Assembly (NCBI GenBank): GCA_963741095.1
Contig: CAVUGN010000002.1
Location: 32,001 to 96,000, forward strand
DNA: 64,000 bases
Source of the DNA: an uncultured Candidatus Micrarchaeota archaeon
GTDB lineage: Archaea > Micrarchaeota > Micrarchaeia > Micrarchaeales > Micrarchaeaceae
Direction: 5' to 3'
Position 1 is the first letter of the stretch; the number at the start of each line of letters is the position of its first letter. Below are positions 808-20,810 of the stretch, piece by piece. Both the position numbers and the translations under genes were made by a program. The notes below the pieces were generated by a model. The model ran no database searches, was not told where the DNA came from, and worked only from the letters and a program-made list of their open reading frames with translations.

Positions 808-2796
808 ATGAAATTGAACCTGTTCGCTCTTGTCGTGCTTTTGCTGTTGTCGTGCCAGTTTTCGGCGTTTTCCCACGCCAGCAGCAACGTAGTGACCGCA
901 AACGTCATCGTGATCTGCCCGTTCTCCCTGACTGCCAATGTCCTGCCGGCCTATGCGATCGGCAACACGATAAACCTGAATTACACCCTGTTCACGCAGG
1001 CCCAATGCAGCATACCCACCCTGCAGGGCAGCTTTGCATTGGAGTACAGCGGCAACAACGTGCAGGTGCTGTACGATTCGCTGACTTCGACGGCCACGCA
1101 GACGCCGCTGCTGTACAACATTCCACCGATAAATTCGATGACCCTGGCGCGCGACAGCTACAAGGCCGTGTTCGATTTCTCTGCCTACGGCACCAGCAAC
1201 CAGAGCGTGCAGAGCTTCGTCCTGGTCAGCCAGTCCAACATCATAATAACGAACTTCACGGTCAGCCCAAGCTCAGTCAGTGTCGGCTCCCCGCTGACCT
1301 TCACGGTCAACGTCCTGAACGACGGAGAGCTCGCATCAGGGCCGATAGGCATGAACATAATCATAACCGGGCCGCAGAGCTTCACGGTGACCGAGTCGGC
1401 TAGCCCTCTCTCGCCGGGCCAGAGCGAGATCCTGACGTTCGTGCTGAGCAACGTTACCGGAGCTGCGGGAGACTACTCTGCGAGCACGTACGCGACGTTC
1501 ATCTACAACAACGCCGCCATAGAGTCCAATCTGTTGAACGCTGCATACACGGTTACGCAGCAGCCCGCGCCGTCACAGGGCGCGCCACCCTCGCCGACAT
1601 CGGTCATCACGGTCATACCGAAACTCCAGTTCACGCAGGTGCCCTTCTACTCCTCGCTCGCGCTGGGCTCGATAGAAGTAACATCGCTGGGACTTCAGGA
1701 CCTGGCGAATGGGAACATAACCGTCAGTCTCGGAGTGCCGCTGGCGTTCGACAACATATTCGACGTCTCGGCTCACAGCATTTACCTTGTTCCCAGCGAG
1801 AGCGTGTTTGTGCAGCTGGTCTTCGATTCCAGCCACGTGAGCGCGCCCGGCACGTACGTGGTGCCCTTGAACGTGAGCGTGAGCGCGGCGAACAGCGTGA
1901 CGGTGGGCACCACCCAGTACCTGACTTACATAGTGTCGAAGAATTCCAGCAGCGTGAGCATGTACAGCCAGATACAGACCGCGCGCAGCAATGCGACAGT
2001 GACCACCTCGATCATCGGCGCAAGGAACCACAGCCTGACGAACGCCACGCTGGTCACCATGCTGCCGCTCTCCGTGGTCAGCAACGCCTCGCAGATAAAG
2101 ACTTATGGATTGCCGGCGACGATAACCTTCGGTACCGGCGGCCCCCAGATAAACTGGCTGGTTCCATACCTGCCGCCGGGCAAGGGCATAACGCTTTCGT
2201 ACACCATAAACAACGCGCAGAACGTCGGGCTGCTCTCCGCGGTGCAGACTCTTCTGGTCGTGCAGTCACAGCCCACGCCCACCAGCATACTGAAGGTCGT
2301 CAGCATACAGACGCCGACATTCTACGCAAACACGCTGAACAAGGTATCCGTTGGGGTGCTGTACACCGGGACAACCATGCAGGGCGTGAGGTTCACCCTT
2401 ACGACTCCCGGCACTGCGACAGTGCTCAATCCGATTCAATTGGTGAATGCAAGCCCGAACCAGCTGCTGCAAGAGACCTTCAACATCAGAACGGAGAATG
2501 CGACCGGCACTTTGCTGCTGAATCTTGGCATAGAAGCACAGAACGCGAGCATCAACTACACGCTGCCGGTGATCGTAATGCAGAAATTCACCCCGACGAC
2601 GAGCACGATACCGCAGGTGACCACGACCCCGATAAACGTTGCGAAGTACGTGCCGTGGGCTGTTGGGGCCGCAGTCGTGGTCGCGGCCGCATACCTGGTC
2701 CGCGGCATAAGAAGAAGGCCGAGATACCAGCCTGGAAGAGCAAAGGAATTAATAAGGATTAGAGAGCAAATAAAGCGCAGCGATGAGCATGCCTAA
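808..2796 (+). CDS. Secreted multi-Ig/CARDB-like surface protein with C-terminal membrane anchor; putative filament base/anchor
   Basis: Class I signal peptide (…FSHA|S), beta-rich S/T/N-rich domains including CARDB-like 'FTVNVLNDGE', many N-x-S/T sequons, C-terminal TM followed by RRRPR; mature N-terminus SSNVVTANVIVIC resembles the N-terminus of the 9226 subunit. Confidence 0.75.
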   Translation: MKLNLFALVVLLLLSCQFSAFSHASSNVVTANVIVICPFSLTANVLPAYAIGNTINLNYTLFTQAQCSIPTLQGSFALEYSGNNVQVLYDSLTSTATQTPLLYNIPPINSMTLARDSYKAVFDFSAYGTSNQSVQSFVLVSQSNIIITNFTVSPSSVSVGSPLTFTVNVLNDGELASGPIGMNIIITGPQSFTVTESASPLSPGQSEILTFVLSNVTGAAGDYSASTYATFIYNNAAIESNLLNAAYTVTQQPAPSQGAPPSPTSVITVIPKLQFTQVPFYSSLALGSIEVTSLGLQDLANGNITVSLGVPLAFDNIFDVSAHSIYLVPSESVFVQLVFDSSHVSAPGTYVVPLNVSVSAANSVTVGTTQYLTYIVSKNSSSVSMYSQIQTARSNATVTTSIIGARNHSLTNATLVTMLPLSVVSNASQIKTYGLPATITFGTGGPQINWLVPYLPPGKGITLSYTINNAQNVGLLSAVQTLLVVQSQPTPTSILKVVSIQTPTFYANTLNKVSVGVLYTGTTMQGVRFTLTTPGTATVLNPIQLVNASPNQLLQETFNIRTENATGTLLLNLGIEAQNASINYTLPVIVMQKFTPTTSTIPQVTTTPINVAKYVPWAVGAAVVVAAAYLVRGIRRRPRYQPGRAKELIRIREQIKRSDEHA

Positions 2797-3595
2797 GCCT
2801 TACAGCATAATAGTTTCATCGCAGAAGGGTGGAGTCGGCAAGACGACCATCTCGGTCAACCTTTCAACAGCGTTGGGGCAGAGTGGGTACAAGGTATTGT
2901 TGGTTGATGCTGATTATTCCAATCCGTGCGTCGGCTTCCATCTCGGCCTCGAGAACGCGAATGCCGGCCTGAGGGCAGTTGTCACCGGCAGGGCGAAACT
3001 CGAGAATGTGGTTGTCCTGCACAACCCCACAGGACTGCACGTGCTCACCGGGGAGATAACCGCGAAACCGTTCCATCCCAGCGCGTCCCAGCAGAAATAT
3101 CTCCGCGAGAGCCTGGAAAAAAGCGGTTATGATTTCGTGATAATAGACATGCCGCCTGGCGCGGAGGATCTTGAGGAGGTAGAGGCCTTTTGCTGCGAGA
3201 ACAGCCGACAGGTCATAATCGTCCTGACTCCGGAGATGTCCGCATGCTCGAGCGCGATAAGGCTTGCGCAGATCTACGAGAAGCAGCACATACTCCACAA
3301 CATGGTCGCCAACAGGGTCAAGAACAAGGCCTACGAGTTGAGCGTCAGTGAGATAGAGGACGCGGTGGGAGAAGGATTGATGGGTGTCTTGCCGGAAGAC
3401 GAGAACGTCCCGATAAGCATAGCGCAGCACATACCTGTTCTGCTGTTGAAGAACCGGTCCGGCTTTTCCGGAGCGATAAAGAGCCTTGCCAGAAGGGCAT
3501 CGAACCGCGTAGGCTACGAACCGGGCGAGGAAAGGTACGTGCCGCATAGGGGCGGAGGCTTCTTCGCGTGGCTGATGCGGCTGTTCGGCAGATAA
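2783..3595 (+). CDS. minD: MinD/ParA family ATPase
   Basis: Deviant Walker A 'QKGGVGKTT', 'LVDAD', 'IIDMPPG', C-terminal amphipathic membrane-targeting helix 'GGFFAWLMRLFGR'. Confidence 0.85.
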   Translation: MSMPKPYSIIVSSQKGGVGKTTISVNLSTALGQSGYKVLLVDADYSNPCVGFHLGLENANAGLRAVVTGRAKLENVVVLHNPTGLHVLTGEITAKPFHPSASQQKYLRESLEKSGYDFVIIDMPPGAEDLEEVEAFCCENSRQVIIVLTPEMSACSSAIRLAQIYEKQHILHNMVANRVKNKAYELSVSEIEDAVGEGLMGVLPEDENVPISIAQHIPVLLLKNRSGFSGAIKSLARRASNRVGYEPGEERYVPHRGGGFFAWLMRLFGR

Positions 3596-3659: not shown

Positions 3660-6600
3660 ATGGAGAGGAAGGCGACCCTGCTCTGTGCGCTGCTGGCAGC
3701 AGTACTGCTTAGCATAGGCATTTCCGCGCAGGGGAACGTCACCTCGTCGCTCAACACGACGTCGGCTGCGACTTCCGTAAATCTTACGATGAGCAACGAT
3801 CCGGTGGCTTACGGGGAGACCCAGGTGCTCACCGCCGCGCTGCTGGGCGGCGCCGGTCCGTTCATCTACAATTTCCTCGTCTACAACGCGTCGGGAGTGC
3901 TCGAGGCCAGCGTGCTGACGCCCTACATATCGCCCTCGAATTATTCCTTCCCCGTCCTGCAGCAGGCCGCGTGGGGCTTCGGGGTGTTCACCGCCAACGT
4001 CGTGGCCATAGACAGCGCTTATCCCGGCATTCCCGTTGCCAATTCCATACTCTATGTGGTGCAGTCCACCACGACGACATCGACAGCCTCTTCCACCTCT
4101 TCCTCCGCATCAACTTCCACATCCACTTCTTCGACGGTGTCGTTGGCGACATTGCCCGGCAACGCGATGAACGCGACGAATTCCATATCGCCGACAATGC
4201 CGCACAACGTGATTTCGGTGGGGACAGGCGCGAAAGCCACGCTTGCATATCAGAATGGCGGAAACAAGGGTATGGTGATGATTCAGGGCAACGCGATAAG
4301 GCTGGCCGCAAGCAGGTCGGTGCTGAGAGAGGTTGATGTGGGGCTGGCAGCAACAAATCTCACAGTTAACGTCAGCATAACCAACCAGTCGCAGGTTCCG
4401 GTTAGCTTCGCCCAGCCAGCAGCTTCGGTGTACCAGTTCGTGCAGATAAACGGCAGCATAGCCAATAGCGTTAGTACCGACATAGACCAGTACATCACCA
4501 GCGTGACCTACAACTTTACCGTCCCTTCCGCTTGGATTGGCAGCATGGGGACTAACGCCGCGAGCATATTGCTCTTCAAGTACTCGCCTTCTTTGCAGAC
4601 CTGGAATCCGCTTACAACGACTCTGATAGGTTCGAATCAAACGTCTTATTTCTATTCCGCAACATCAAACTCATTCTCGGCTTATGTTGTTGGCTTTGTG
4701 ACAGGCAGCGGTTCGGCGACGGCAAACACCGTGTCAAACACAATAGTCACTGGAGGATACGCCTATGCGACTTATTTCTGGGGCGGAGCGATATCGACAG
4801 TGGGTAGAAATTCGATCGGTGCCACAGCTACCACATCGAGTTGGACCGTTGACGGCAACTATCTTGTCAGAAGCACGACTGCCTCAGCCACGTCGAACTT
4901 CAACACGGTTGTGATAGGGCACAATTCGCTAAACTCGGCAGCATTCACGACGAATTTCATAAAATCCGCAAACGGCAACGTCGTGAATGCGATAATAGCG
5001 GGCATAGGGGCGAACGTGATATTTGCGAATGGCAAAGCGTATTCGTCTAACGGCGTGGGCACAGCTGCTACAGTCCTTACTTTCAACGCTGCGGCCAACA
5101 GTTTTATTGTGCTTGTTTATGCTTCTGCCGGAACAGTCATGAGCGCTTTTTCAACAAATGCGCCCGGAAGTTCTCTCGCGGTAAATGTCGTAAGTGCGTC
5201 CGGTTCCGTAGACCAAGTTGCAATACAAACCGTCAATTCGCTGACTTCTGCGGTCGGTAGCTTTAATGCTGTGATAAGCACGGCCACTTCAGCATCAAAG
5301 AGCATGGTAGCGTATGTCTTCCCACCCTACGCGGTGAACCTTGTCGATAATCCGGCAACCGGAAGCATAATGACCAGCAACATGGTCGGCGGACCCAACA
5401 CTTATGCGAGCGGCCAGACGATAAACGTGATAGGCACGCAGAGCATAAACGCCATAGTGCCGACAGGCTACCGCTTCGCCAGCTGGACCGTAAGCAGCTC
5501 GGCCAACCTCATAGTCACGAGCACAAGCACGCAAAACACCTTCCTCACCGTGGAGGGCAACGGCATTCTCACGGCCAACTTCGCGCCTCCGACCGTAGCG
5601 ATAACTTCAGGACCGACCAACGCGATAGCTGATGTGGGGCAGTATGAATATTTCACTGCCACCGTAACGAACGGCAATGGACAGCCATACACCTACAACT
5701 GGATAGCTAGTAACGCGGTGTCAGGTGCGCTGATAGGCGGAGCAAACATGCTCTTCACGAGCTGCACCCTCGCGACCAACGCCCTTGGCTGGATAGTCGG
5801 CGCGAACGAGCCGACCAACTCGCCGGTAGCATGGAACGTGATAGTGACGGATACCTTGGTGACGTACAATTCTGTTGATTCCGGAGGCTACGGCGCCAAC
5901 ACGGCACTTGCTGCAGGCCTTCTCACGGAATCGAACACGGTGATAGACAACACCCAGTATTCGCTGCTCACTGCCAACCCTTCCGGAGGCAGCATGGGCG
6001 CGGGCTCTTCGTACAACTGGTTTGCCAACACTGTTGGAAACCCCAATTGCAACAGCGCGAACGTCGTGGGAGGCCAGACCTTAAAAACTTATCTGGCGAA
6101 CCCCAGTTCGACCACCTACTACTCGTACAACGTCATCGACTCGGCCAGCACGAAGACCACCGTGTGCAATCTGGCGGGGAACAGCATAACCGTCCAGTCG
6201 ACGCCCTCGGTGTCGACCCCGGTGCCTTCGAATGTCCTATTGGACTCGGGGCAGATGGTTGTCTACAACACGATACTCACAAGCCCGAGCGGCGGCTCGT
6301 CGTTCACGGTCAACCTCGTCAACATGGGTTCGGCGGGCTTGGCAAGCTCGCTTACGGGCCAGAGCGCAGGAACATTGGTCTTCGTGGCAAACACGCCGGC
6401 AGTGGGGACAGACACCTTCGAGGTGGTCGCAGCCGACGGCAGCACGACAAGCCCGTTCGTTTTCACCTCTGGCGTAAACACGATTGTGGTCAACACGGCG
6501 ATGAACCCGCAGCTGAGCAGCACGCCTGCATTGCCGGCAACTTTGAACACCGGCCAGACAATAACCTTCAACGCGCAGGTGGGCCCTCTGGCAATGGGAG

Positions 6601-9137
6601 GTTCGAGCCCTTTTGTCGTCAATGGAGTTGGCGCATGGACTTTCACAAACAACCAGCCGTTGCCGAGCGTGGATGCCCAAGGCGAAGTCGTGTACGGGAA
6701 CATCATCTACACCATAGGAGGTACGATAGGCGTCTCGTATTACAGTAATGCGGTCTACTATGCGCCGGTATCGGGCACAGGTGCTGGCGGTTGGACCGCG
6801 ACCAAGAATTACCCGATAAACGTGTTATTTCAAGGCGGGAGTTGCGTTGCATTTAACCAAAACATATATTGTGTGGGCGGCGAAGACAATTTGGGGCATA
6901 TTTTTAATGCGGTTTATTACGCCCCGATACTTGCCAGCAATGCGCTGGGGTCTTGGACCGCGACCACGAATTATCCGCTTAACGGATTGGAAGTGGATTG
7001 CTTGCTATCCAGTAGCAACATCTACTGCGTAGGTGGCTTAGGCACGTCCCCAAAATACAATGCAGTATACTACGCGCCCATACTCGCAAGCAATGCGCTG
7101 GGGTCTTGGACTGGGGTAACCAACTATCCCGTGAATACAATGGACGCGAGCTGCAATTTGTATGGCAATAACATCTATTGTGTAGGTGGCTTCGCTGCCC
7201 TCAGAACCAACTCAGTATACTACGCGCCCGTACTTTCCAGCAACGCGCTGGGGTCTTGGACCGCGACCACGAATTATCCCATAAATACGGTTACCCCATG
7301 CGTTCAGTATAGCAACTCGATTTTCTGTACGGGTGGCAGCACGACGGGCCCCAACACGAATGCAGTATACTATGCGCCCATACTTTCCAGCAACGCGCTG
7401 GGGTCTTGGACCGCGACCACGAATTATCCGGTGAATGTAGCGAATGAAGGCTGCGTCGGCTATAGCAACGACATTCTCTGCGTTGGCGGGACTACGGGTA
7501 CCGGGAGCACTTACACTAATTCCGTTTACTATGCGCCCATAACGGGCGCTGGTGGTGCCGGGGCAAGCGTAGGCGCTTGGACGCTTGCAGGGACCACGAC
7601 GATATCTGTTTCCAATTTCCCCACATGTGTGCTGTCAAACAGCATAATCTATTGTTTGGGCGGCGAGCAGCTTGTGGGAGGGGTTACATATAACAGCGTA
7701 TACTACGCGCCCATACTCGCAAGCAACGCTCTTGGCACGTGGAACCAGGCGGCGACAAATTACCCGTTCTCGCTTGGTTATATTAGCTGCTCCACATACA
7801 ACAGCGTGATTTACTGCGTGGGTGGATTGACCATTGGCCTTCATGGAGTCAACAGCGTCGAATACGGCCTGGCGCAGAGCACAGGGGTGAGCACGTGGAC
7901 GCCAGGCGGCAACTATCCGTTCTCCTTGTACTCGACGTCATGTGTCACGGATAGCAATATGATCTATTGCATTGGTGGCAGCGGTAGTACAAGTGGGCCC
8001 ACTTATAACAGCGCTTATTATGCCCCGATATATGCTAACACTGCAATAGGTAACTGGGTAAGTATGACGTCTTATCCCGTGAATGCCAACCCCGATTGCA
8101 TGGCGTACAACAACGACATCTATTGCATAAGTGGGCCAAATAACAACATTTACTACGCGCCCATACTTGCCAACGCTGCAATAGGCACATGGTCGTCAGG
8201 CACGGCAAATTATCCGTTGGTTTCGGCGGGCGGCTGCGTTGCATACAGCAACGACATCTTTTGTACGAGCGGAAGCAGCGATGGGCTATATGATGGTGGT
8301 TCAAACTCCATTTATTACGCCCCTATCTCTAGCACCGGAGTTGGCGCCTGGACGTATCTAGTAACACCCCTCTTCCCGATGAATACGTTCGAGCAATACT
8401 GCGCCACATTCGGCAATGCGATATACTGTGGGGGTGGAGTGACACAAGGTGGCACCCAATTCTGGCCCCAGTTCTACTGGGCGTATTTGACCGGCACTAC
8501 GGTCTCGAGCGGCAGTAGCAGCACGATTTTCGGCACGCCGCCGTACAGCTATTATTATTATGTTGCAAACGCCATCAACAACTTCGTCATGCAGATCGGG
8601 TCCGACGTCAGCGACTTCGCGACGTCCAACACCTTCGCCTGGACGATACCCTCGAACATGGGCGGCAACGTCCTTGTCGCGAACGTCGTCATCACGGACA
8701 GCGCGACCACGCAGGCCACCGCGAACTCCATCTTCAGCAACGTATTAACTATACCGGGTGCCGGCAGCGCGTGCCTGACAAATTCCGCTCCGAGCATGAT
8801 AAATTTCGGCAGCATCAACCCGACAAACAGCGTTAACACCCAGAACCAGATCATTGATACCAACTCCGGGAGCGTTGCAGCATACATGTATGTGTTCGGC
8901 GGCAACTGGATTGTGACAAGCTCGCAGCTGAACGGCTTCGGCATAAGCAACACCACCTGGGCCACGGGCAGCGGCGTGTCTTATGCATCTGCAACAAAGC
9001 TGAGCACAAGCCCGTACAACACCTTGCAATTGGTACCTGCAGGAGGCAGCAACTCGGTGTGGTTCGGCCTCAATATACCGCCTGCTACGACGGCAACGAC
9101 ATTCAACCAGATCATAACGATAGAGAATTCGTGTTGA
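3660..9137 (+). CDS. 1825-aa secreted adhesin-like protein: Ig/PKD-like domains, PGF-pre-PGF-like domain, 12 Cys-rich Kelch-like repeats, C-terminal pilin-like domain ending IENSC
   Basis: Signal peptide; S/T linker; 'VYQFVQIN…NFTVPSAWI…WNPLTT…FYSATSNSFSAYVVG' (PGF-pre-PGF-like); repeats 'YYAPI…GxW…NYP…C…IYCVGG'; no C-terminal TM. Confidence 0.8.
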   Translation: MERKATLLCALLAAVLLSIGISAQGNVTSSLNTTSAATSVNLTMSNDPVAYGETQVLTAALLGGAGPFIYNFLVYNASGVLEASVLTPYISPSNYSFPVLQQAAWGFGVFTANVVAIDSAYPGIPVANSILYVVQSTTTTSTASSTSSSASTSTSTSSTVSLATLPGNAMNATNSISPTMPHNVISVGTGAKATLAYQNGGNKGMVMIQGNAIRLAASRSVLREVDVGLAATNLTVNVSITNQSQVPVSFAQPAASVYQFVQINGSIANSVSTDIDQYITSVTYNFTVPSAWIGSMGTNAASILLFKYSPSLQTWNPLTTTLIGSNQTSYFYSATSNSFSAYVVGFVTGSGSATANTVSNTIVTGGYAYATYFWGGAISTVGRNSIGATATTSSWTVDGNYLVRSTTASATSNFNTVVIGHNSLNSAAFTTNFIKSANGNVVNAIIAGIGANVIFANGKAYSSNGVGTAATVLTFNAAANSFIVLVYASAGTVMSAFSTNAPGSSLAVNVVSASGSVDQVAIQTVNSLTSAVGSFNAVISTATSASKSMVAYVFPPYAVNLVDNPATGSIMTSNMVGGPNTYASGQTINVIGTQSINAIVPTGYRFASWTVSSSANLIVTSTSTQNTFLTVEGNGILTANFAPPTVAITSGPTNAIADVGQYEYFTATVTNGNGQPYTYNWIASNAVSGALIGGANMLFTSCTLATNALGWIVGANEPTNSPVAWNVIVTDTLVTYNSVDSGGYGANTALAAGLLTESNTVIDNTQYSLLTANPSGGSMGAGSSYNWFANTVGNPNCNSANVVGGQTLKTYLANPSSTTYYSYNVIDSASTKTTVCNLAGNSITVQSTPSVSTPVPSNVLLDSGQMVVYNTILTSPSGGSSFTVNLVNMGSAGLASSLTGQSAGTLVFVANTPAVGTDTFEVVAADGSTTSPFVFTSGVNTIVVNTAMNPQLSSTPALPATLNTGQTITFNAQVGPLAMGGSSPFVVNGVGAWTFTNNQPLPSVDAQGEVVYGNIIYTIGGTIGVSYYSNAVYYAPVSGTGAGGWTATKNYPINVLFQGGSCVAFNQNIYCVGGEDNLGHIFNAVYYAPILASNALGSWTATTNYPLNGLEVDCLLSSSNIYCVGGLGTSPKYNAVYYAPILASNALGSWTGVTNYPVNTMDASCNLYGNNIYCVGGFAALRTNSVYYAPVLSSNALGSWTATTNYPINTVTPCVQYSNSIFCTGGSTTGPNTNAVYYAPILSSNALGSWTATTNYPVNVANEGCVGYSNDILCVGGTTGTGSTYTNSVYYAPITGAGGAGASVGAWTLAGTTTISVSNFPTCVLSNSIIYCLGGEQLVGGVTYNSVYYAPILASNALGTWNQAATNYPFSLGYISCSTYNSVIYCVGGLTIGLHGVNSVEYGLAQSTGVSTWTPGGNYPFSLYSTSCVTDSNMIYCIGGSGSTSGPTYNSAYYAPIYANTAIGNWVSMTSYPVNANPDCMAYNNDIYCISGPNNNIYYAPILANAAIGTWSSGTANYPLVSAGGCVAYSNDIFCTSGSSDGLYDGGSNSIYYAPISSTGVGAWTYLVTPLFPMNTFEQYCATFGNAIYCGGGVTQGGTQFWPQFYWAYLTGTTVSSGSSSTIFGTPPYSYYYYVANAINNFVMQIGSDVSDFATSNTFAWTIPSNMGGNVLVANVVITDSATTQATANSIFSNVLTIPGAGSACLTNSAPSMINFGSINPTNSVNTQNQIIDTNSGSVAAYMYVFGGNWIVTSSQLNGFGISNTTWATGSGVSYASATKLSTSPYNTLQLVPAGGSNSVWFGLNIPPATTATTFNQIITIENSC
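6620..8495 (+). repeat. Twelve intragenic Kelch-like beta-propeller blade repeats (~50 aa, ~150 bp period)
   Basis: 12 units counted in translation; 49-bp identical DNA blocks at 7231-7279 and 7381-7429, near-identical copy at ~6935-6978. Confidence 0.85.
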
Positions 9138-9225: not shown

Positions 9226-10215
9226 ATGGCGATCAGGATGGAAGAAATGCACAGTAGACCGATTTATGCAATACTTTTAATAGGGGTATTAGCGGCAGCC
9301 ATGGGGATATTCCTGGCTGTTCAGGCTATGCCGTTGGCGATGGCCGGAACGACGACAAATACGGTGACGGCCAACGTGAACGTGCAGGGCATCTGCTGGA
9401 CTGCGGCGCTGCCGAATCCGGCAACATTCGGCAATGTGAACCCCAGCACCGCTTCGGTTACGAACCTGCAGGTCACCGATAACGACGTTGGCGGCAACAT
9501 GGCGGCATTTCTTTGGATAAATGCAAACGGCAACATAAACAGCGGCAACTGGCAATGGGGAACCAACACGATACTCGTCGGCAACACGGTCTACAACGCG
9601 ATCAGCCAGGGCGCATACCTCGGCAACACGCTGACAACCACGCCCACGAACACGAACATCGCCCTGGCTGCACCAACGCTTGGGGCGCCGACAAACTCTG
9701 TCTTCATATACTTCGGACTGAACATACCTGGCGGCACTCCGGGGGGATTGTACACACAGGCATTGGTCTTCAACAACATATGCACCACGACAAACGCGAA
9801 CACCCTGAGCCTGACTGCGAACGTGCAGCAAGTATGCTACACTACGACGACTCCGAACGCGATAACGTTTGGCAACATGTACCCTGGTACTACGTACCCC
9901 GCAAACGTTGTCGTTACGGATAACGATGTCGGCGGGAATGTAGGAGCGGCGATGTACGTCGAGGGTCAGAATCCAAATTGGGTGTTCGGTTCAAACAACA
10001 TAGCGGTCTCGAATACAGTGTACAACGCGATCAGCCAGAGCACGTACCTTGGCAACGCGCTGACCACCTCGTTCGTGAATACGAACATTGCCATAGCCGC
10101 ACCCACACAGGCTACCCCGTACGCAACGGCCAATGTGTACTTCGGAATGGCTGTGCCAGGGGGCACTGTTGCGGGTCTGTACACAGAGAACATAATCATC
10201 GAGAATTCGTGTTGA
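9226..10215 (+). CDS. Secreted tandem two-domain pilin/fimbrial-like subunit ending IENSC
   Basis: Signal peptide (AMA|G); two homologous ~145-aa domains (TANVxxxxC…TFGN…VTDNDVGGN…NTVYNAISQ…YFG…PGGTxxGLYT…N-[IS]-C); similar to the C-terminal domain of the 3660 protein. Confidence 0.75.
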   Translation: MAIRMEEMHSRPIYAILLIGVLAAAMGIFLAVQAMPLAMAGTTTNTVTANVNVQGICWTAALPNPATFGNVNPSTASVTNLQVTDNDVGGNMAAFLWINANGNINSGNWQWGTNTILVGNTVYNAISQGAYLGNTLTTTPTNTNIALAAPTLGAPTNSVFIYFGLNIPGGTPGGLYTQALVFNNICTTTNANTLSLTANVQQVCYTTTTPNAITFGNMYPGTTYPANVVVTDNDVGGNVGAAMYVEGQNPNWVFGSNNIAVSNTVYNAISQSTYLGNALTTSFVNTNIAIAAPTQATPYATANVYFGMAVPGGTVAGLYTENIIIENSC

Positions 10216-11998: not shown

Positions 11999-14900
11999 TC
12001 AGGGCATGGTGTAGTTGTTGTGCACCCATGAAGGCTTTGGCGGCACCGGAGGCAGCCCGCCGGTGTAGTTGTTCAGCGCGAATATCCTCACCGCATAGGT
12101 CCCGTTGACTAGGTTGACCCCGGTGGCGTTCGTGACCGGGTAGACCTGTGTGAAGCCCGGCAGGTTGCCGAGCATGAAGCCCTTGTAGTAGTTCGAAGTG
12201 TAGAAGCCTGATGGCGCGTTATTCACTATGCCGGTGGCGTCGGGCAGGTATATCATGAGGAACTCGACAAAAGGCGTGCCGCTGACGTTCACCACGCCGA
12301 GATAGTATGAGGATTGGATGACCGCATTCATCTTCACGCCGTTGGAGCTGTAGACCCCGAGAACGCCGCTCTTGTTCGGGTTCGGGCTGACGCAGACCGT
12401 GTTGTTGGAGAGCGAGCTGCCGATGACCAGATAGGCCTTGGCGTAGATGCTGTTGCTGGTTGAGATGGAGCAGTAGTTGTTTATGCTCTGCTGCGTCTCG
12501 TTGGGCACGAACACAGATAGGGGTATTAGCGCGTACTGCGGGTCGTTGTCGAGCTCGCACTGCGAGGTGCCGAGCACGTAGGGAACCCCCTGCTGTGCTC
12601 CCTGGGCCATCGCGTAGGCCTCTGAGGTCGCATTGACGTTTATGCAGGCCAGGAAGTCGAGTGCCTGCCATTTCGATATGAGGTCCTCGTCCATCAGCAC
12701 GTACTTCGTTTGATTGGAATTCATGAAGTGTGCAAGGCTTTGTGGGGTGTAGTTGTACTTCTGTCCCAGCACGAGGTTCGCCGCGGCCGCGTAGTCTTCT
12801 GCCGCTACTGCGTTGTCGCCGCGGAGGAAGGCGTTGGCGTTGCCGAACCAGTTGATCCAGTCGCCATAGTCCCACCAGGACAGCACTCTCGGGGCGTTGG
12901 TGTTTATGTTGGTCTTTATCCATGCCATGGTGTTGAGCCAGTATTTCGGCACCGTGTTGCAGAATATGCTCTCTCCCAGGACGTTGTTGTTGTTTGTGAG
13001 CGTGGTGCAGGCGGTCGTTGGCGTGGTGCTGAAGACGAAGAGCGCCCTGAATGAGGACAGCATCGATGCGCTCTCACCATAGAAGAACATGCGCTGCGCT
13101 AATCCGATGAACGAGAGTATCAGCAGCAGTATCATCAATCCGAGGAACAGGTAGTAGACCGTGCTCGGCTTCTTCTGCGAATAGTTGCGCAGCGCGAGGT
13201 ACGCGAGCAGTATTGACGCGACGATCGCGCCGAACATGAAGAAGACCCCGACCATCAGGACGAGGTTGGCTAGCGTGCTGTGCTCGGCGTAGAAGCTGCT
13301 GCTTATGTGGCCCGCCTCGTCGTACGCAGACCTTACCTTCAGCTTGAAGTTGTCCTGCGCGAGGTACATGACCTCACCGAGGACGATGCAGAACATTATT
13401 ATGTAGGCGACGCCGAGGTGCGGGAGGTACTTGACTTCAGAGAAGCCCGCGAAGAGCAGTGGCAGGGCTATCGCCATGTAGAGTATGCCCGTCCTGTTCC
13501 GCCTGTAGATTATGCTGATTGCCAGCAGGATGATCGACGCTGCAGAGATGATCCATACCAGGAGCGGGACGCCGAAGATGTTCGCGCCTATCGCGCCGAA
13601 GCCCTGGGCGCCGAAATTATAAAGCAAACCGGTCGGGATGTATTCCTGCACCGTCATGAAGAGAGGTTTTGAGGGCGTTGTGAACCTTGCGCTCAGGTTA
13701 AGGTAGGACTTGATCGGCCCGCCCAAAGGCGTCAGCAGCAGCACGGCCAGCGCGACTACGATTATGGCGAATATGACCAGCGCTCTCGATGCGGCTTTGG
13801 AGTACTTGCTCGCGGTGCCGATGAACTCGGATATCTTGGGCGCAAGCATGTTCGACAGGTATTCCGCGACCACGACAAACAAAAGGCTGAAGAGCGGGAA
13901 GGCGACTATCACGGGTATGTCCAGCAGGTTGGGTATCCTGTTGGCGAGCGTGGAGCTGTAGGGGTTGTAGACCGCGTAGAAAATTATTATGATCGCCAGC
14001 ACCCAAGCATTCATTGTGTAGAAATCCTTCAGGTTCTCCTTCCTTGTTATGCCGATTATGCCCTGAAGTACTATGTAAGCGGCAAGTATGCCGGTGGTGA
14101 CCGTGTAGTAGTGTGCGCCGAGGAAGTTCGAGGCGAAGGCGATGCCCGCAAGGATCGCAAGTCGCTTGTCCTTCGGATTCCTGACCGCAAGCAGGTAGCT
14201 TGCGAGGAAGAAAAACAAGGCGAATATGCCCCACGGTTCGAGGAGCTGCTCCCCGGCGATGAATGTTGTGTACAATACGGGCATCATCATGGCTAGCGCT
14301 GCGCCGATGAGCCCTATCTTCTCGTCATATTCGTGGTACAGCAGCTGGAAGACCACGAAAACAAGCAAGGCAGCAGTTATTGGAGGATAGAAGCTGCCGA
14401 CGTAGCTCATAAGGTTGGTGTTGAATGTCGCGTAGTGCGGCCCCAGCACATTCGCCAGGTCGTACCAGTAAGCTTCGAGGTAAGGTATCAGAGGTTCCAC
14501 CCTGAGCACCGTGCCAGCTGCCACGCCGGGCCATGCCGAGGGCGAGAGCAGGACCTGATAGCCGTAGGTGATCACTGATTCCGTGTTGAGCATGTCGAAG
14601 TATGGGTCGAACTCGAAGAATTTCGGCGCCACGCTGATGTTGAACATCCTTGTAGCGAAGCTGAGAATCATTATTATCAGAAGCACGGTCCAGACGGCCC
14701 ACATCTTGTCGCTTTTCTTCGACTCCTTTGCGGGTGTGGTTACGGGTTGTATGTCCTTGAGCAGCAGCTGCTCTTCGCGCATGTGCTCCTCGAGAAGCCT
14801 GTTCTGGTCTTCGGTGTGCAGCGCGGAGATCTTGTCCTTCTCCTCTTTGGTGAGCCCCGATGCGAGGCGCATTTCTTCTTGCTGCTTCGAATGCAATGCC

Positions 14901-15322
14901 TTTTCCTCGTCTATGTGCCTACTGACTATCGCCTCTCCCTTCGGCATCATCGAGAGTATCTGCCTGGCGTCCTCGACGACGGTCTCGTTTCTCGATGGAT
15001 TTGCCTTGGGCTTGCCGGCGATGAGGGCCTTGAAGTCCTTGAAAACGCCTTCGGTGTAGCACAGCACCAGCCCCACCAGCGTCAGGAAGAGCACGTTGAC
15101 TGCGAAAAGCGTCAGAGAGAAGCTGAAGAAGTGTATGTAGTCCATCAGGTAGGATTCCAGCCAGGTGAGGGTAGCTGGTCCGATCAGGCCGAAGATAACG
15201 CCTATGACCGTTATCTCGAAAGCGTGCAGCTCTGTTTTTCTTAGAAGCGCGAAGGAGAGCAGCACTCCAGGAACTAGTATGGATAGGAACGCCACCAGTA
15301 TCGTTGCATCTATCCCGAACAT
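11999..15322 (-). CDS. aglB: Oligosaccharyltransferase AglB (STT3 family) with N-terminal extension
   Basis: 'FEFDPYF', 'TVQEY', 'SWWDYGDWI', 'DEDLISKW' DK-type motif, multiple TMs. Confidence 0.93.
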   Translation of the reverse strand: MFGIDATILVAFLSILVPGVLLSFALLRKTELHAFEITVIGVIFGLIGPATLTWLESYLMDYIHFFSFSLTLFAVNVLFLTLVGLVLCYTEGVFKDFKALIAGKPKANPSRNETVVEDARQILSMMPKGEAIVSRHIDEEKALHSKQQEEMRLASGLTKEEKDKISALHTEDQNRLLEEHMREEQLLLKDIQPVTTPAKESKKSDKMWAVWTVLLIIMILSFATRMFNISVAPKFFEFDPYFDMLNTESVITYGYQVLLSPSAWPGVAAGTVLRVEPLIPYLEAYWYDLANVLGPHYATFNTNLMSYVGSFYPPITAALLVFVVFQLLYHEYDEKIGLIGAALAMMMPVLYTTFIAGEQLLEPWGIFALFFFLASYLLAVRNPKDKRLAILAGIAFASNFLGAHYYTVTTGILAAYIVLQGIIGITRKENLKDFYTMNAWVLAIIIIFYAVYNPYSSTLANRIPNLLDIPVIVAFPLFSLLFVVVAEYLSNMLAPKISEFIGTASKYSKAASRALVIFAIIVVALAVLLLTPLGGPIKSYLNLSARFTTPSKPLFMTVQEYIPTGLLYNFGAQGFGAIGANIFGVPLLVWIISAASIILLAISIIYRRNRTGILYMAIALPLLFAGFSEVKYLPHLGVAYIIMFCIVLGEVMYLAQDNFKLKVRSAYDEAGHISSSFYAEHSTLANLVLMVGVFFMFGAIVASILLAYLALRNYSQKKPSTVYYLFLGLMILLLILSFIGLAQRMFFYGESASMLSSFRALFVFSTTPTTACTTLTNNNNVLGESIFCNTVPKYWLNTMAWIKTNINTNAPRVLSWWDYGDWINWFGNANAFLRGDNAVAAEDYAAAANLVLGQKYNYTPQSLAHFMNSNQTKYVLMDEDLISKWQALDFLACINVNATSEAYAMAQGAQQGVPYVLGTSQCELDNDPQYALIPLSVFVPNETQQSINNYCSISTSNSIYAKAYLVIGSSLSNNTVCVSPNPNKSGVLGVYSSNGVKMNAVIQSSYYLGVVNVSGTPFVEFLMIYLPDATGIVNNAPSGFYTSNYYKGFMLGNLPGFTQVYPVTNATGVNLVNGTYAVRIFALNNYTGGLPPVPPKPSWVHNNYTMP

Positions 15323-18849: not shown

Positions 18850-19812
18850 TCACTTCGCTATGTAGCTTACCTTCGATTCCTTGATGCCCCTTGCGTTCCT
18901 GTTCCTTATCGATTTCCTTATGCGCACCAGCCTCTTCGCCGGACCCGGCACAGAGCCGTTGAGCATCACGTAGTCGTTCCTTATCTTCCCGTAGTTCTGG
19001 AATCCTTCCGGAGGGGTTATTGTCGCGTCCCCCCTTGAACCTATTTTAAGTATTCTTTTGTTGTGCTCTGTTCGGTAGTTGAATCCGAGCTGTCCTGCTT
19101 GAGGTATTGTGTACAGAACCTTCGGCACTCCGAACGGACCCAGTGATCCGACGTGCCTCGTCTTTCCGGTTGCCTTGTGGTATTGCACGGCAATGCCGAA
19201 CCTCTTGACCGGGCCCTGCCATCCCTTTCCTTTGGATATGGATGTAACATCGACAAATTCGCCGCTCTTGAAAACATCAGCCGCCTTGAGCTCCTTTCCG
19301 AGCATTCCTGCGACGAAATCGAACTTCTCTTCGATGGTCTTGCCGCCGACGTGCGATTCGAACCTCGAGGTGTGGTGCTGCTCTGCGCCCATTCCCTTCG
19401 GGAACGCGGCCACAAGGGCGACCACATCGGTGAACTCGGCAATCTTTGATTTTATGAGCGCCACTTTTGTCTCGTCGTTCTTCACGACCTTCATGTGGAG
19501 CTTCTTCGCCGAGGCGCTGTTTATGACCTCGAGCGTCGACACTTGATAATGGGTGTTGGGATCCTTTGAGTACAGGCGCATGCCGTAGACCTCCATGGTT
19601 GGGATTTCCAGGAGCGTGCAGGGCCTGCTCACCTCTGCGCCCTTCGATGCGGCGCCGGTGTCGTCGGTGACCATCGCGTGGGTCATCCCGACCTTGAATG
19701 CGATTATGCTTGAGAGCGTGGGCTCCTTGATGTAGGACGGCGAAGTGCGCAGCCTGGGAAGCCGTGTCTGGGCGCGTCTGTGATGCCAATATTGCATTGA
19801 GCCTTTGTGCAT
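18850..19812 (-). CDS. rpl3: 50S ribosomal protein L3
   Basis: 'FKVGMTH', 'SKGKGWQGPVKRFG', 'GSVPGPAKRLVRIR'. Confidence 0.96.
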   Translation of the reverse strand: MHKGSMQYWHHRRAQTRLPRLRTSPSYIKEPTLSSIIAFKVGMTHAMVTDDTGAASKGAEVSRPCTLLEIPTMEVYGMRLYSKDPNTHYQVSTLEVINSASAKKLHMKVVKNDETKVALIKSKIAEFTDVVALVAAFPKGMGAEQHHTSRFESHVGGKTIEEKFDFVAGMLGKELKAADVFKSGEFVDVTSISKGKGWQGPVKRFGIAVQYHKATGKTRHVGSLGPFGVPKVLYTIPQAGQLGFNYRTEHNKRILKIGSRGDATITPPEGFQNYGKIRNDYVMLNGSVPGPAKRLVRIRKSIRNRNARGIKESKVSYIAK

Positions 19813-19944
19813 GATGTACACTGTGGTCGATTGTGCTAAGTCGGAGAGCACAAAAAGCAGAAAGAATCTGCCTGTCCTTTTATGTTGTTTTACTCTATGT
19901 TTTTATATACCTTTACCTTTTGCGGAAGTGGCGACCTTCCCTGC

Positions 19945-20235
19945 TTATCTGCCATGTTTTCCTCTGCTGCTGTTCTTCAGCTTCAGGTTGTCTATTGAAT
20001 CCAGCACGCGGATCTCGCGCATCATGGAATTTATTGAGGCGTGCAGCGCGGCGAGGTCATCCGCCCTTATCGTGATTTTCAGGCCGGTGCGCGTTTCTGT
20101 TATTGCGGTGCTGCTCCTTACCGTTGTCTTTTCGCTCTGCGATGAAAGCAGCTTCCTGTAATCGATCCCGGATTTTTTGGAGAGGGTTATCTCGGCGCGG
20201 CCTTCGTGCTTTGTCGAGGCGATTTTTGACATCAT
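19945..20235 (-). CDS. pcc1: KEOPS complex subunit Pcc1
   Basis: 'LKITIRADDLAALHASINSMMR' Pcc1 signature; context next to L15e. Confidence 0.8.
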   Translation of the reverse strand: MMSKIASTKHEGRAEITLSKKSGIDYRKLLSSQSEKTTVRSSTAITETRTGLKITIRADDLAALHASINSMMREIRVLDSIDNLKLKNSSRGKHGR

Positions 20236-20810
20236 ATCCTTCTTCGGCCCCTTATGTTCTCTCTGACGCTCGGCCTTGCCTTGACGGTGCCGAAGCTCTT
20301 TATCGCTATTCCCCTGTGCTTCTTGCCCACGGACGTGAGCCCGCGGAACGCACGTGCGCGCTGGGCTATGATGTTGTGGTACATCTTGTCCGATTTTATG
20401 GCCGGCACTGCGCGGTCAAGCATTATGACCTCGTAGAACTTCCTTGAGCCGGCGGATCCGACGAAGTATGAGTTGAGGACCTCGCAGTTGATGAACTTCC
20501 TTGCCGCCCTTTCCTCTGCTATGGCCTGCACGGACTTTGCCCTGGCGAAGAACCTTCCGCTCTTTGACGGCTTCCTCCCTCCCCAGTTTCTTTCCCTCTT
20601 CTTCTTTCCGCCCTTCACCTGCACCCTTATGATTATGACTCCCTCCTTCGCCTTGTAGCCGAGCTCCCTGGCCCTCGCTATGTTTGTCGGCCCGTCGACC
20701 TTCGACACTGGCGGCTGCGTGGTCCATTCCACCAGCCTCTGCTTGTAGGCGTCCGGCCGTATCTTGTATTCGTTGACGAAGCTGCTCTTCATTGATTTGT
20801 ACATGCTCAT
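20232..20810 (-). CDS. rpl15e: 50S ribosomal protein L15e
   Basis: 'ARARELGYKAKEG', 'IAEERAARKF…EVLNSYFV', 'RAFRGLTS'. Confidence 0.96.
   Translation of the reverse strand: MSMYKSMKSSFVNEYKIRPDAYKQRLVEWTTQPPVSKVDGPTNIARARELGYKAKEGVIIIRVQVKGGKKKRERNWGGRKPSKSGRFFARAKSVQAIAEERAARKFINCEVLNSYFVGSAGSRKFYEVIMLDRAVPAIKSDKMYHNIIAQRARAFRGLTSVGKKHRGIAIKSFGTVKARPSVRENIRGRRRI

Follow-up and report, generated by a model that had tools for sequence, protein, structure and literature searches.

Archaeal donor-strand filaments, namely threads, bundling pili and cannulae, have been found only recently. In the chaperone-usher pili of Gram-negative bacteria, the tip adhesin (FimH or PapG) carries a C-terminal pilin domain, and PapH acts as the terminator. 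Here, we describe a five-gene cluster in the genome of an uncultured Micrarchaeota archaeon that may encode a filament of comparable logic, with emphasis on its first product, the membrane-anchored protein P0001. The DNA analysed, hereafter the window, is a stretch of 64,000 nt (G000:C2:32001-96000; contig CAVUGN010000002.1 of assembly GCA_963741095.1) from genome G000, which measures 1.08 Mb, is 94.4% complete and has a G+C content of 52%. Five genes on the forward strand lie head to tail and encode the putative anchor P0001, the MinD-like ATPase P0002, the adhesin-like protein P0003, the pilin P0004 and the candidate chaperone P0005 (Table 1). On comparative and covariation evidence, and with a probability that we put at roughly 55%, P0001 would be the membrane-tethering, cell-proximal end piece of an usher-free, chaperone-usher-like donor-strand pilus that comprises a tip adhesin, a pilin shaft and a membrane anchor.

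Among systems described so far, the nearest is a pilus named Pam, which has been proposed for bacteria of the candidate phyla radiation (CPR), with PamA/B pilins, a PamT tip, PamC/D chaperones and a PamR anchor (PMC13278184, bioRxiv 2026). The N-terminus of PamR is predicted there to insert into the last pilin, to end growth and to tether the filament. Pam resembles the present system in its two-domain pilins, which have a strand in the linker and a C-terminal immunoglobulin (Ig)-like domain that is truncated in Pam and putatively so here, in the absence of an usher, in PapD-like chaperones (here a candidate) that keep a C-terminal transmembrane (TM) helix, and in its occurrence in an ultra-small episymbiont (PMC13278184). 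The two systems, which were compared by description, also differ. The present one is archaeal, whereas Pam is bacterial; the chaperone candidate has a single ASH-like domain; the anchor has a CARDB-containing stalk in place of the RbmA-like one of Pam; the putative tip is an adhesin of 1825 residues, where Pam has a single-domain pilin; and the anchor is linked to a MinD-like ATPase (Pam features from PMC13278184).

The likeness to chaperone-usher pili (see also PMC9715654) would lie in an acceptor-only tip, in shaft subunits that have both donor and acceptor, and in a final subunit whose donated strand brings growth to an end. The alternating hydrophobic pattern and the small residue in mid-strand also recall the chaperone-usher donor. 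In contrast to those pili, the 94%-complete genome has no match to the usher (PF00577, 0 matches at E <=0.01, with control genomes positive) or to PapD_N (PF00345, 0 matches), and there is no outer membrane. Moreover, the putative terminator is an integral membrane protein and the pilin has no detectable sequence relation to chaperone-usher pilins.

Among archaeal filaments, the thread of Sulfolobus acidocaldarius is built of Saci_0406, and the neighbouring Saci_0405 is a putative cap with an N-terminal strand and no acceptor site; the polarity, assembly factors and cell fixation of threads are stated to be unknown (PMC9715654). The Micrarchaeota cluster is likewise archaeal and Sec-exported, would follow donor-strand logic and has a neighbouring donor-only protein. 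The thread cap has no TM helix (PMC9715654), whereas the donor-only protein of the window does, and this helix would fix the polarity here. TasA/TapA of Bacillus subtilis and AbpA bundling pili are mentioned in the same source (PMC9715654). These are chaperone-free or accessory-assisted donor-strand polymers in which an accessory protein engages the strand-accepting groove of the subunit. TapA is described as a nucleator, in contrast to a TM-anchored terminator, and no sequence relation to it was detected. More generally, P0001, P0004 and the profiles of their families (A1 for anchors, A2 for pilins) showed no sequence similarity to the solved thread, TasA or AbpA chains when compared with Protein Data Bank (PDB) chains, and a literature search found no description of this Micrarchaeota system.

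An N-terminal strand common to the anchor and the pilin

Directly after its signal peptide, P0001 carries the segment SSNVVTANVIVIC (residues 25-37). Mature P0004 begins with TTNTVTANVNVQGIC (residues 43-57, nt 9352-9396), 8.47 kb downstream of the P0001 strand. The first-pass annotation, made from the letters of the window, had claimed that the two N-termini match as N-x-VTANV-x-V followed by Cys, and this match is real. Among 2525 six-frame open reading frames (ORFs) of >=100 residues in G000 (561,483 residues), VTANV.V occurs exactly twice, at the mature N-termini of P0001 and P0004, and the longer N.VTANV.V.{1,3}C also occurs exactly twice, at the same two N-termini. The strand holds up in close homologues as well: 12 of 13 aligned P0001 homologues keep it, and the exception, P0018, starts with another type of domain. 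The anchor alignment shows V35 as invariant and A31 and C37 as nearly so; in the pilin strand, A49 and V53 are invariant across 33 aligned sequences.

The similarity between the two families does not extend further. Alignment of A1 with A2 by hhalign paired only 24 N-terminal columns (E 8.9e-5, probability 60%), and BLASTP returned no match between anchor and pilin; the common element is therefore a strand and not a domain. It takes the form of an alternating hydrophobic V/L-x-A-x-V-x-V segment after the signal peptide in both pilins and anchors, and the pilin-like domain of adhesins does not include it.

To assess its distribution, a position matrix for the strand was applied to 69 anchor ORFs whose hydrophobic N-terminus is intact. 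The cut-off was 13 bits, close to the value of 13.3 bits that marks the 99.5th percentile in a control set of 1138 ORFs. Anchor ORFs shorter than 500 residues or without a hydrophobic N-terminus, which are frameshifted copies or copies at contig ends (G350, G218, G021, G139 with 740 residues, G154 with 459 and G215 with 323), were left out, as were all loci of the unpublished genomes G029 and G197; genome-level tallies of anchors, pilins and a 799-residue protein discussed below include G029 and G197, and sequence-level claims do not. Anchors that have the same N-domain as P0001 mostly carry the strand: 46 of 52 pass the cut-off, in another four a strand that looks alike precedes the Cys, and two lack it (G349, which has a β-propeller N-terminus, and G215). 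Among the 17 anchors without the N-domain, eight reach the cut-off and a ninth (G375) was recognised by eye. The strand stands directly before a complete CARDB domain in seven of these nine (G164, G376, G375, G320, G003, G358 and G372) and before a different Ig-like domain in the other two (G010 and G362). It thus behaves, at the level of sequence, as a portable N-terminal extension that is found ahead of three domain types.

This portability bears on a different explanation, in which the segment simply opens the first domain of the protein that carries it, or is a strand-Cys start common to secreted Ig-like proteins of the lineage. P0001 would then be a membrane-anchored surface or stalk protein independent of any filament, and the cluster would be a set of co-regulated surface proteins. 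We regard this as unlikely, since the strand is kept before three different domain types, including some CARDB domains that are already complete, and the similarity to the pilin ends after the strand. The strand is also missing exactly where pilin matches are missing. All nine strand-bearing anchors without the N-domain come from genomes with pilin matches, whereas six of the eight strand-less ones come from genomes without a pilin match at E <=1e-5 (G204, G139, G239, G178, G099 and G264); relaxing the threshold to 1e-3 still gave no match in G239, G178 and G139. In the remaining two genomes (G010 and G362), a strand-bearing paralogue adjoins divergent pilins on another contig.

The anchor family as a whole is found in 111 of 401 genomes searched in the phylum and in 100 of 176 genomes in two families of the order to which the window belongs. 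Anchor and pilin occur together in 47 of the 93 genomes of the first of these families (f1; anchor only 10, pilin only 3, neither 33) and in 31 of the 83 genomes of the second (f2; anchor only 12, pilin only 5, neither 35). In several of the anchor-only genomes, the assembly is fragmented and the anchor lies close to the end of its contig.

A further alternative is that the common segment is a recognition tag, read after signal-peptide cleavage by P0005, a peptidase or a glycosylation step, and forms no part of a filament. The segment does lie directly after the predicted cleavage site in both proteins, and P0005 adjoins the pilin. We nevertheless consider a tag improbable: the adhesin, which follows the same export route and belongs to the same cluster, is without the segment in 19 of 20 cases, the same type of strand is found inside the pilin, at the uncleaved junction of its two domains, and the V/L-x-A-x-V-x-V alternation is the pattern of a buried β-strand.

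The pilin-like domain and its inter-domain strand

P0004 has a signal peptide that ends in AMA, followed by a tandem of two paralogous domains, each running from Cys to Cys (residues 57-186 and 204-329). The second domain ends in ENSC, and each domain is preceded by a TANVxV-type strand. The domain family comprises 738 representative clusters at E <=0.001 among 1.84 billion representatives. Among the matches listed, the pilin-domain match reaches the last residue in 57 of 57 proteins longer than 400 residues, and the pilin-like domain is always chain-terminal. Domain 1 of tandem pilins is the one exception, as the inter-domain strand comes after it.

The inter-domain strand could belong to either domain, and covariation assigns it to the preceding one. 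Mutual information with average product correction (APC) was computed for 109 distinct two-domain pilins (effective number of sequences, Neff, 76; 308 columns). The pair Cys57-Cys186 ranked first of 45,451 pairs and serves as a positive control because the two residues are lost together in many members. Windows within domain 1 favour domain 1 (+0.005 to +0.027), and domain-2 windows from about residue 242 onwards favour domain 2 (-0.02 to -0.034). The inter-domain strand (residues 193-203) shows the strongest preference for domain 1 of all (+0.027; bootstrap 0.025 +/- 0.006, 60/60 positive), which holds in the subsets with Cys57 (0.016) and without it (0.027), and from Cys204 the preference has the opposite sign. 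Of the 40 highest-ranking pairs, ten join residues 189-201 to domain 1, including its first strand (60, 68 and 72) and its last strand (177, 178, 180 and 181), with a weak antiparallel register. This behaviour fits a cis 'G strand' of domain 1. For the alternative in which each strand belongs to the domain that follows it, the homologous inter-domain strand is therefore a counter-example, as it goes with the preceding domain.

If the inter-domain strand completes domain 1 in cis, domain 2, the single-domain pilins and the terminal domain of the adhesin would lack a G strand. The homologous strands at the N-termini of pilins and anchors are candidates to supply the missing strand in trans. Pairing of the P0004 N-terminal strand with domain 2 of the same molecule looks impossible on chain connectivity, as this strand leads straight into Cys57, and domain 1 lies between.

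The two Cys pairs of the pilins differ in their conservation. Cys57/Cys186 of domain 1 is jointly lost in 65 of the 109 two-domain pilins, with NVIY…NEN-type residues in its place, and Cys204/Cys329 of domain 2 is invariant together with the C-terminal ENSC. The terminal acceptor domain seems to need this N-to-C disulfide staple. In many genomes, two to five tandem single-domain pilin genes (~170-220 residues each) replace the one two-domain pilin, as at loci L098 (G206), L099 (G376), L102 (G260), L126, L128 and L130; apparent in-frame stops in two-domain matches at such loci are gene boundaries. The tandem pilins of a locus vary in their N-strands, a hint that the shaft may be ordered or mixed.

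Neither the pilin nor the anchor family has relatives by sequence in Pfam, NCBIfam or the PDB. The single P0004 sequence and the A2 profile, each compared with all PDB chains, gave a best E of 0.18, to unrelated proteins. An identity with SCPU (Csu-type) pilins was dropped, as only one of 33 members matched, at E 0.004 and under the cut-off; GH123_N_2 matches 27 of the 33 members over the last strands only. For the pilin homologue P0035, the ESM Atlas gave unnamed Microcaldota clusters and a WxL lead (0.83), which was treated as chance. Inspection by eye found neither a class III signal peptide nor a hydrophobic N-terminal α-helix of the type IV pilin kind in P0001 and P0004. Both proteins have instead long Sec-type leaders that end in A-x-A-like sites; beyond these lie a stretch of polar Ser, Thr and Asn residues and a β-type alternation.

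Putative acceptor, donor and membrane modules

The two elements, the strand and the pilin-like domain, are distributed among the cluster products in a complementary manner. Adhesins have the putative acceptor only, pilins have both putative donor and acceptor, and anchors have the putative donor strand and a TM helix only. P0003 scores 7.7 bits for the N-terminal strand, and 18 of the 19 other adhesins also stay below 13 bits, so that the strand is missing in 19 of 20. Adhesin counts are lower bounds; hmmsearch with A2 missed P0003 itself, which was caught by the genome profile search. That adhesins bear the same terminal domain without the strand is again at odds with the strand being an intrinsic part of that domain. 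A strand is present in P0003 just before Cys1705 (ANSIFSNVLTIP), but it belongs to the preceding Ig-like domain, because a copy of this Ig-like domain at the N-terminus of P0003, where no pilin domain follows, ends likewise (ANSILYVV, then a Ser/Thr linker). P0003 also contains a PGF-pre-PGF domain above the cut-off and Kelch-like repeats below theirs. No ORF matches both A1 and A2, and the anchors are therefore without a pilin-like domain.

From these comparisons we infer strand insertion in trans, the polarity of the filament and the roles of P0005 and the MinD-like ATPase. The proposed assembly would proceed as follows. The pilin-like domain, bounded by a Cys at either end, would close the polypeptide and lack its last β-strand. 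In the two-domain pilin, the inter-domain strand would complete domain 1 in cis; for domain 2, for the one domain of short pilins and for the domain that closes the adhesin, the missing strand would come in trans from the N-terminus of the following subunit. With an acceptor and no donor, the adhesin would occupy the tip, and the pilins, with both, would form the shaft. P0001 would insert residues ~26-36 into the last pilin, halt growth and tie the filament to the membrane. P0005 probably holds the subunits before assembly, and the MinD-like ATPase probably acts on the conserved tail of the anchor in positioning or clustering. The first-pass annotation had held that P0001 caps the filament and tethers it to the membrane. 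The comparison favours this claim through the portable strand, the co-occurrence with pilins and the complementary modules, with the restriction that P0001 would cap the cell-proximal end alone, the distal end being taken by the 1825-residue adhesin.

Donor-strand assembly might also be real with P0001 in a less passive role than that of a terminator, either mounting the adhesin directly without a shaft or acting as a placeholder displaced by each incoming pilin. The terminal domain of the adhesin and domain 2 of the pilin are of one type, both ending in ENSC, so the anchor strand could fit either, and some loci have an anchor and a pilin and no detected adhesin. The comparisons fit these variants and a cell-proximal terminator alike; pilin genes are conserved beside the anchor, and we give the variants little credence.

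Evidence weighing against P0001 as the end piece

Several observations count against P0001 as the filament's base, and part of them speak for the strand being a component of each protein's own first domain. The strand of P0001 could pack on its own N-domain. In the pilins, the N-terminal strand shows no preference for domain 2 (+0.0075; bootstrap 0.005 +/- 0.004, 92% positive; -0.001 in the subset without Cys57); this test is weak because the strand is nearly invariant, yet it gives no support for pairing in trans. Covariation between anchor and pilin strands within 42 genomes is also weak, with a BLOSUM z of 1.5 (reached in 349 of 5000 shuffles) and an identity z of 1.8 (208 of 5000), relatedness being uncorrected. 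Mutual information can furthermore carry a subfamily (phylogenetic) signal, as seen in the coupling of Cys57 to residues 220, 221 and 255.

The comparative evidence has limits of its own. The strand-less anchor forms come from only four genera and the genomes are related, so the association between strand and pilin should be read as a pattern rather than as a statistic. Because the sequences that the strand matrix scored are also those used to refine it, the scores describe the family and prove nothing. The module of stalk, TM helix and tail occurs without the strand and inside giant open frames, which gives it a life of its own, and three of 41 loci (L077, L097 and L098) have no MinD-like gene adjoining the anchor. 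Finally, a similar motif arose by chance elsewhere. A third bearer, a two-TM protein of 799 residues at G000:C1:1400-3799 (-) (L131/L132), contains TVNANVIVL after its first TM helix and scores 22.1 bits; it was rejected as a look-alike, being the product of an unrelated core gene found in 118 of the 121 genomes of the order, with the motif in none of 23 homologues. As this match is unconserved, the motif alone can arise by chance, and for this reason it is position, synteny and conservation that set P0001 apart.

Architecture of the anchor

The C-terminal TM helix and basic tail claimed in the first-pass annotation are present (residues 614-631 and 632-662) and, at the sequence level, this mode of envelope attachment is kept across the family. 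The tail, RGIRRRPRYQPGRAKELIRIREQIKRSDEHA, is highly conserved, with L648, E653 and R657 invariant. P0001 has no PGF motif and no NCBIfam match that would place it among PGF-CTERM/archaeosortase substrates; its C-terminus consists of the TM helix followed by a conserved basic tail of 31 residues, unlike PGF-CTERM anchoring.

The stalk had been annotated as a series of Ig/CARDB-like domains, and this stands for one of them. A CARDB domain (residues 146-227) matches PF07705 at 20.1 bits in P0001, under the Pfam cut-off of 22.7, and is matched in 14 of 14 members of the anchor family (best E 1.3e-5). The following ~390 residues (228-613) match no family. That the stalk spans the S-layer is a conjecture. 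The N-domain is not pilin-like, since beyond the strand it has no profile similarity to the pilin, and it is dispensable, as the family includes forms that lack it.

The stalk/TM/tail module is also found apart from the strand, at L116 (G204:C5), L115 (G099:C18), L114/L127 (G139:C9) and L006/L109 (G178). It forms the C-terminus of very long open frames, of up to 5658 residues among those listed, which often adjoin a second copy and a MinD-like gene. It has the look of a general pedestal that holds giant surface proteins at the membrane. At L003/L009 (G349) and in P0018, the strand and the N-domain are replaced by a YVTN/NHL-type β-propeller according to Pfam matches; G349 has no pilin match in its genome.

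The MinD-like ATPase and the candidate chaperone

Gene order around the anchor and the pilin was compared in 41 loci, namely the window and loci from 40 of the 78 genomes with both families, picked because both matches lay on one contig and irrespective of MinD or P0005. A MinD-like gene directly follows the anchor in 38 of the 41, and a P0005-like gene directly follows the pilin or pilins in 39 of the 41, the two misses lying at the fetched ends.

P0002 is a P-loop NTPase with a deviant Walker A motif and matches AAA_31, CbiA and ParA above their cut-offs. It scores 136 bits against minD_arch, below the equivalog-type cut-off of 201.75, and is for this reason called MinD-like and not MinD. 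The MinD-like proteins of these loci end in an amphipathic tail rich in Trp, Phe, Leu and Arg, which may be a membrane-targeting helix. The pairing of anchor and MinD-like gene persists at L006, where the anchor has no strand and a giant surface protein follows. The ATPase thus goes with the stalk/TM/tail module, as the pair is retained where the anchor is without strand or pilin. A contact between the anchor tail and the ATPase, which the first-pass annotation had raised, may be conjectured from the adjacency in 38 of 41 loci, the 14-nt gene overlap and the presence of MinD-like genes after the module where there is no pilin.

The 28 aligned members of the P0005 family have a signal peptide, an invariant QLGEVAG-type start, one Ig domain, a TM helix and a Lys/Arg-rich tail. 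W112 and K138 are invariant, and members include L067:11496-12230 and L093:6427-7140; the tail of P0005 is a near-perfect repeat of KVKKAEGKAAVKVKKSA-type units. Against the PDB, the family profile (A3) matched ASH-type Ig domains, with CFAP65 at 2.3e-6, HYDIN at 8.1e-5 and the OCRL ASH domain at 0.0049. In Pfam, the 28 members matched Cep192_D6 (23), OCRL-like ASH (16), CFAP65 and HYDIN Ig (14 and 13) and MSP (3); the ASH, Cep192_D6 and MSP-type matches of P0005 itself are all sub-threshold. These families form the PapD-like superfamily. P0005 is a candidate membrane-anchored pilin chaperone.

Layout of the cluster

The coordinates of the cluster and its elements are collected in Table 1. ORF starts were taken as the first ATG, GTG or TTG, and some leaders are lengthened thereby. 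Homologues of the cluster proteins carry Micrarchaeota or Micrarchaeia names. An ORF of 1107 residues lies near the cluster at window positions 11999-15322 (-). Upstream of the window, ORFs of 2408 residues (G000:C2:11163-18389, -) and 448 residues (19248-20594, -) both contain TANVPV.

Table 1. Features of the five-gene cluster, with positions counted from the first nucleotide of the window.
Feature	Position	Strand	Basis
P0001, putative anchor, 662-residue ORF	808-2796	+	translation
P0001 signal peptide, residues 1-24, ends SHA	808-879	+	Sec-type by eye; hydrophobic N-terminus kept in A1
P0001 N-terminal extension SSNVVTANVIVIC, residues 25-37, putative donor strand and Cys37	880-918	+	conservation, profile alignment, motif count
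P0001 N-domain, residues 38-143, CPF... start, no known family	919-1236	+	Cys37/Cys67 nearly invariant
P0001 CARDB-like Ig domain, residues 146-227	1243-1488	+	Pfam PF07705
P0001 remaining extracellular stalk, residues 228-613	1489-2646	+	conserved across family
P0001 TM helix, residues 614-631, YVPWAVGAAVVVAAAYLV	2647-2700	+	sequence
P0001 basic cytoplasmic tail, conserved RAKELIRIREQIKRSDEHA, including stop codon	2701-2796	+	sequence, alignment
P0002, MinD/ParA-like ATPase, amphipathic C-terminal end	2783-3595	+	14-nt overlap with P0001 gene
P0003, secreted adhesin-like protein, 1825 residues, ends in pilin-like domain	3660-9137	+	profile matches
P0003 C-terminal pilin-like putative acceptor domain, Cys1705-Cys1825, ends ENSC	8772-9134	+	A2 match G000:C2:40634-41134, E 7.2e-26
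P0004, two-domain pilin, 329 residues	9226-10215	+	ORF; 66 homologues
P0004 N-terminal strand TTNTVTANVNVQGIC, residues 43-57	9352-9396	+	A49, V53 invariant
P0004 inter-domain strand LSLTANVQQV, residues 194-203, before Cys204	9805-9834	+	covaries with domain 1
P0005, candidate membrane-anchored chaperone, 254 residues	10225-10989	+	ASH/PapD-like Ig profile matches

Implications for Micrarchaeota

In this system, the sequence itself would fix polarity, with an acceptor-only adhesin, a donor-and-acceptor pilin and a donor-only integral membrane anchor, and anchoring and polarity are for this reason directly testable. The system is widespread, and its carriers live attached to hosts. Electron cryotomography has shown filaments that link a Micrarchaeon to its host, although the authors attributed them to the host (PMC8975820). 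As a tentative extension of the proposed pilus, which we hold to be possible rather than likely, the cluster may encode an archaeal counterpart of the CPR Pam pilus in DPANN episymbionts: an usher-free, chaperone-assisted host-attachment organelle with a giant Kelch/PGF-pre-PGF tip adhesin, a Cys-stapled shaft, a TM-stalk base, a tail organised by the MinD-like ATPase, and a displaceable placeholder strand that would allow growth at the base while the filament stays tethered. The parallel with the pilus proposed for CPR bacteria (PMC13278184) suggests that two radiations of ultra-small symbionts use the same building principle.

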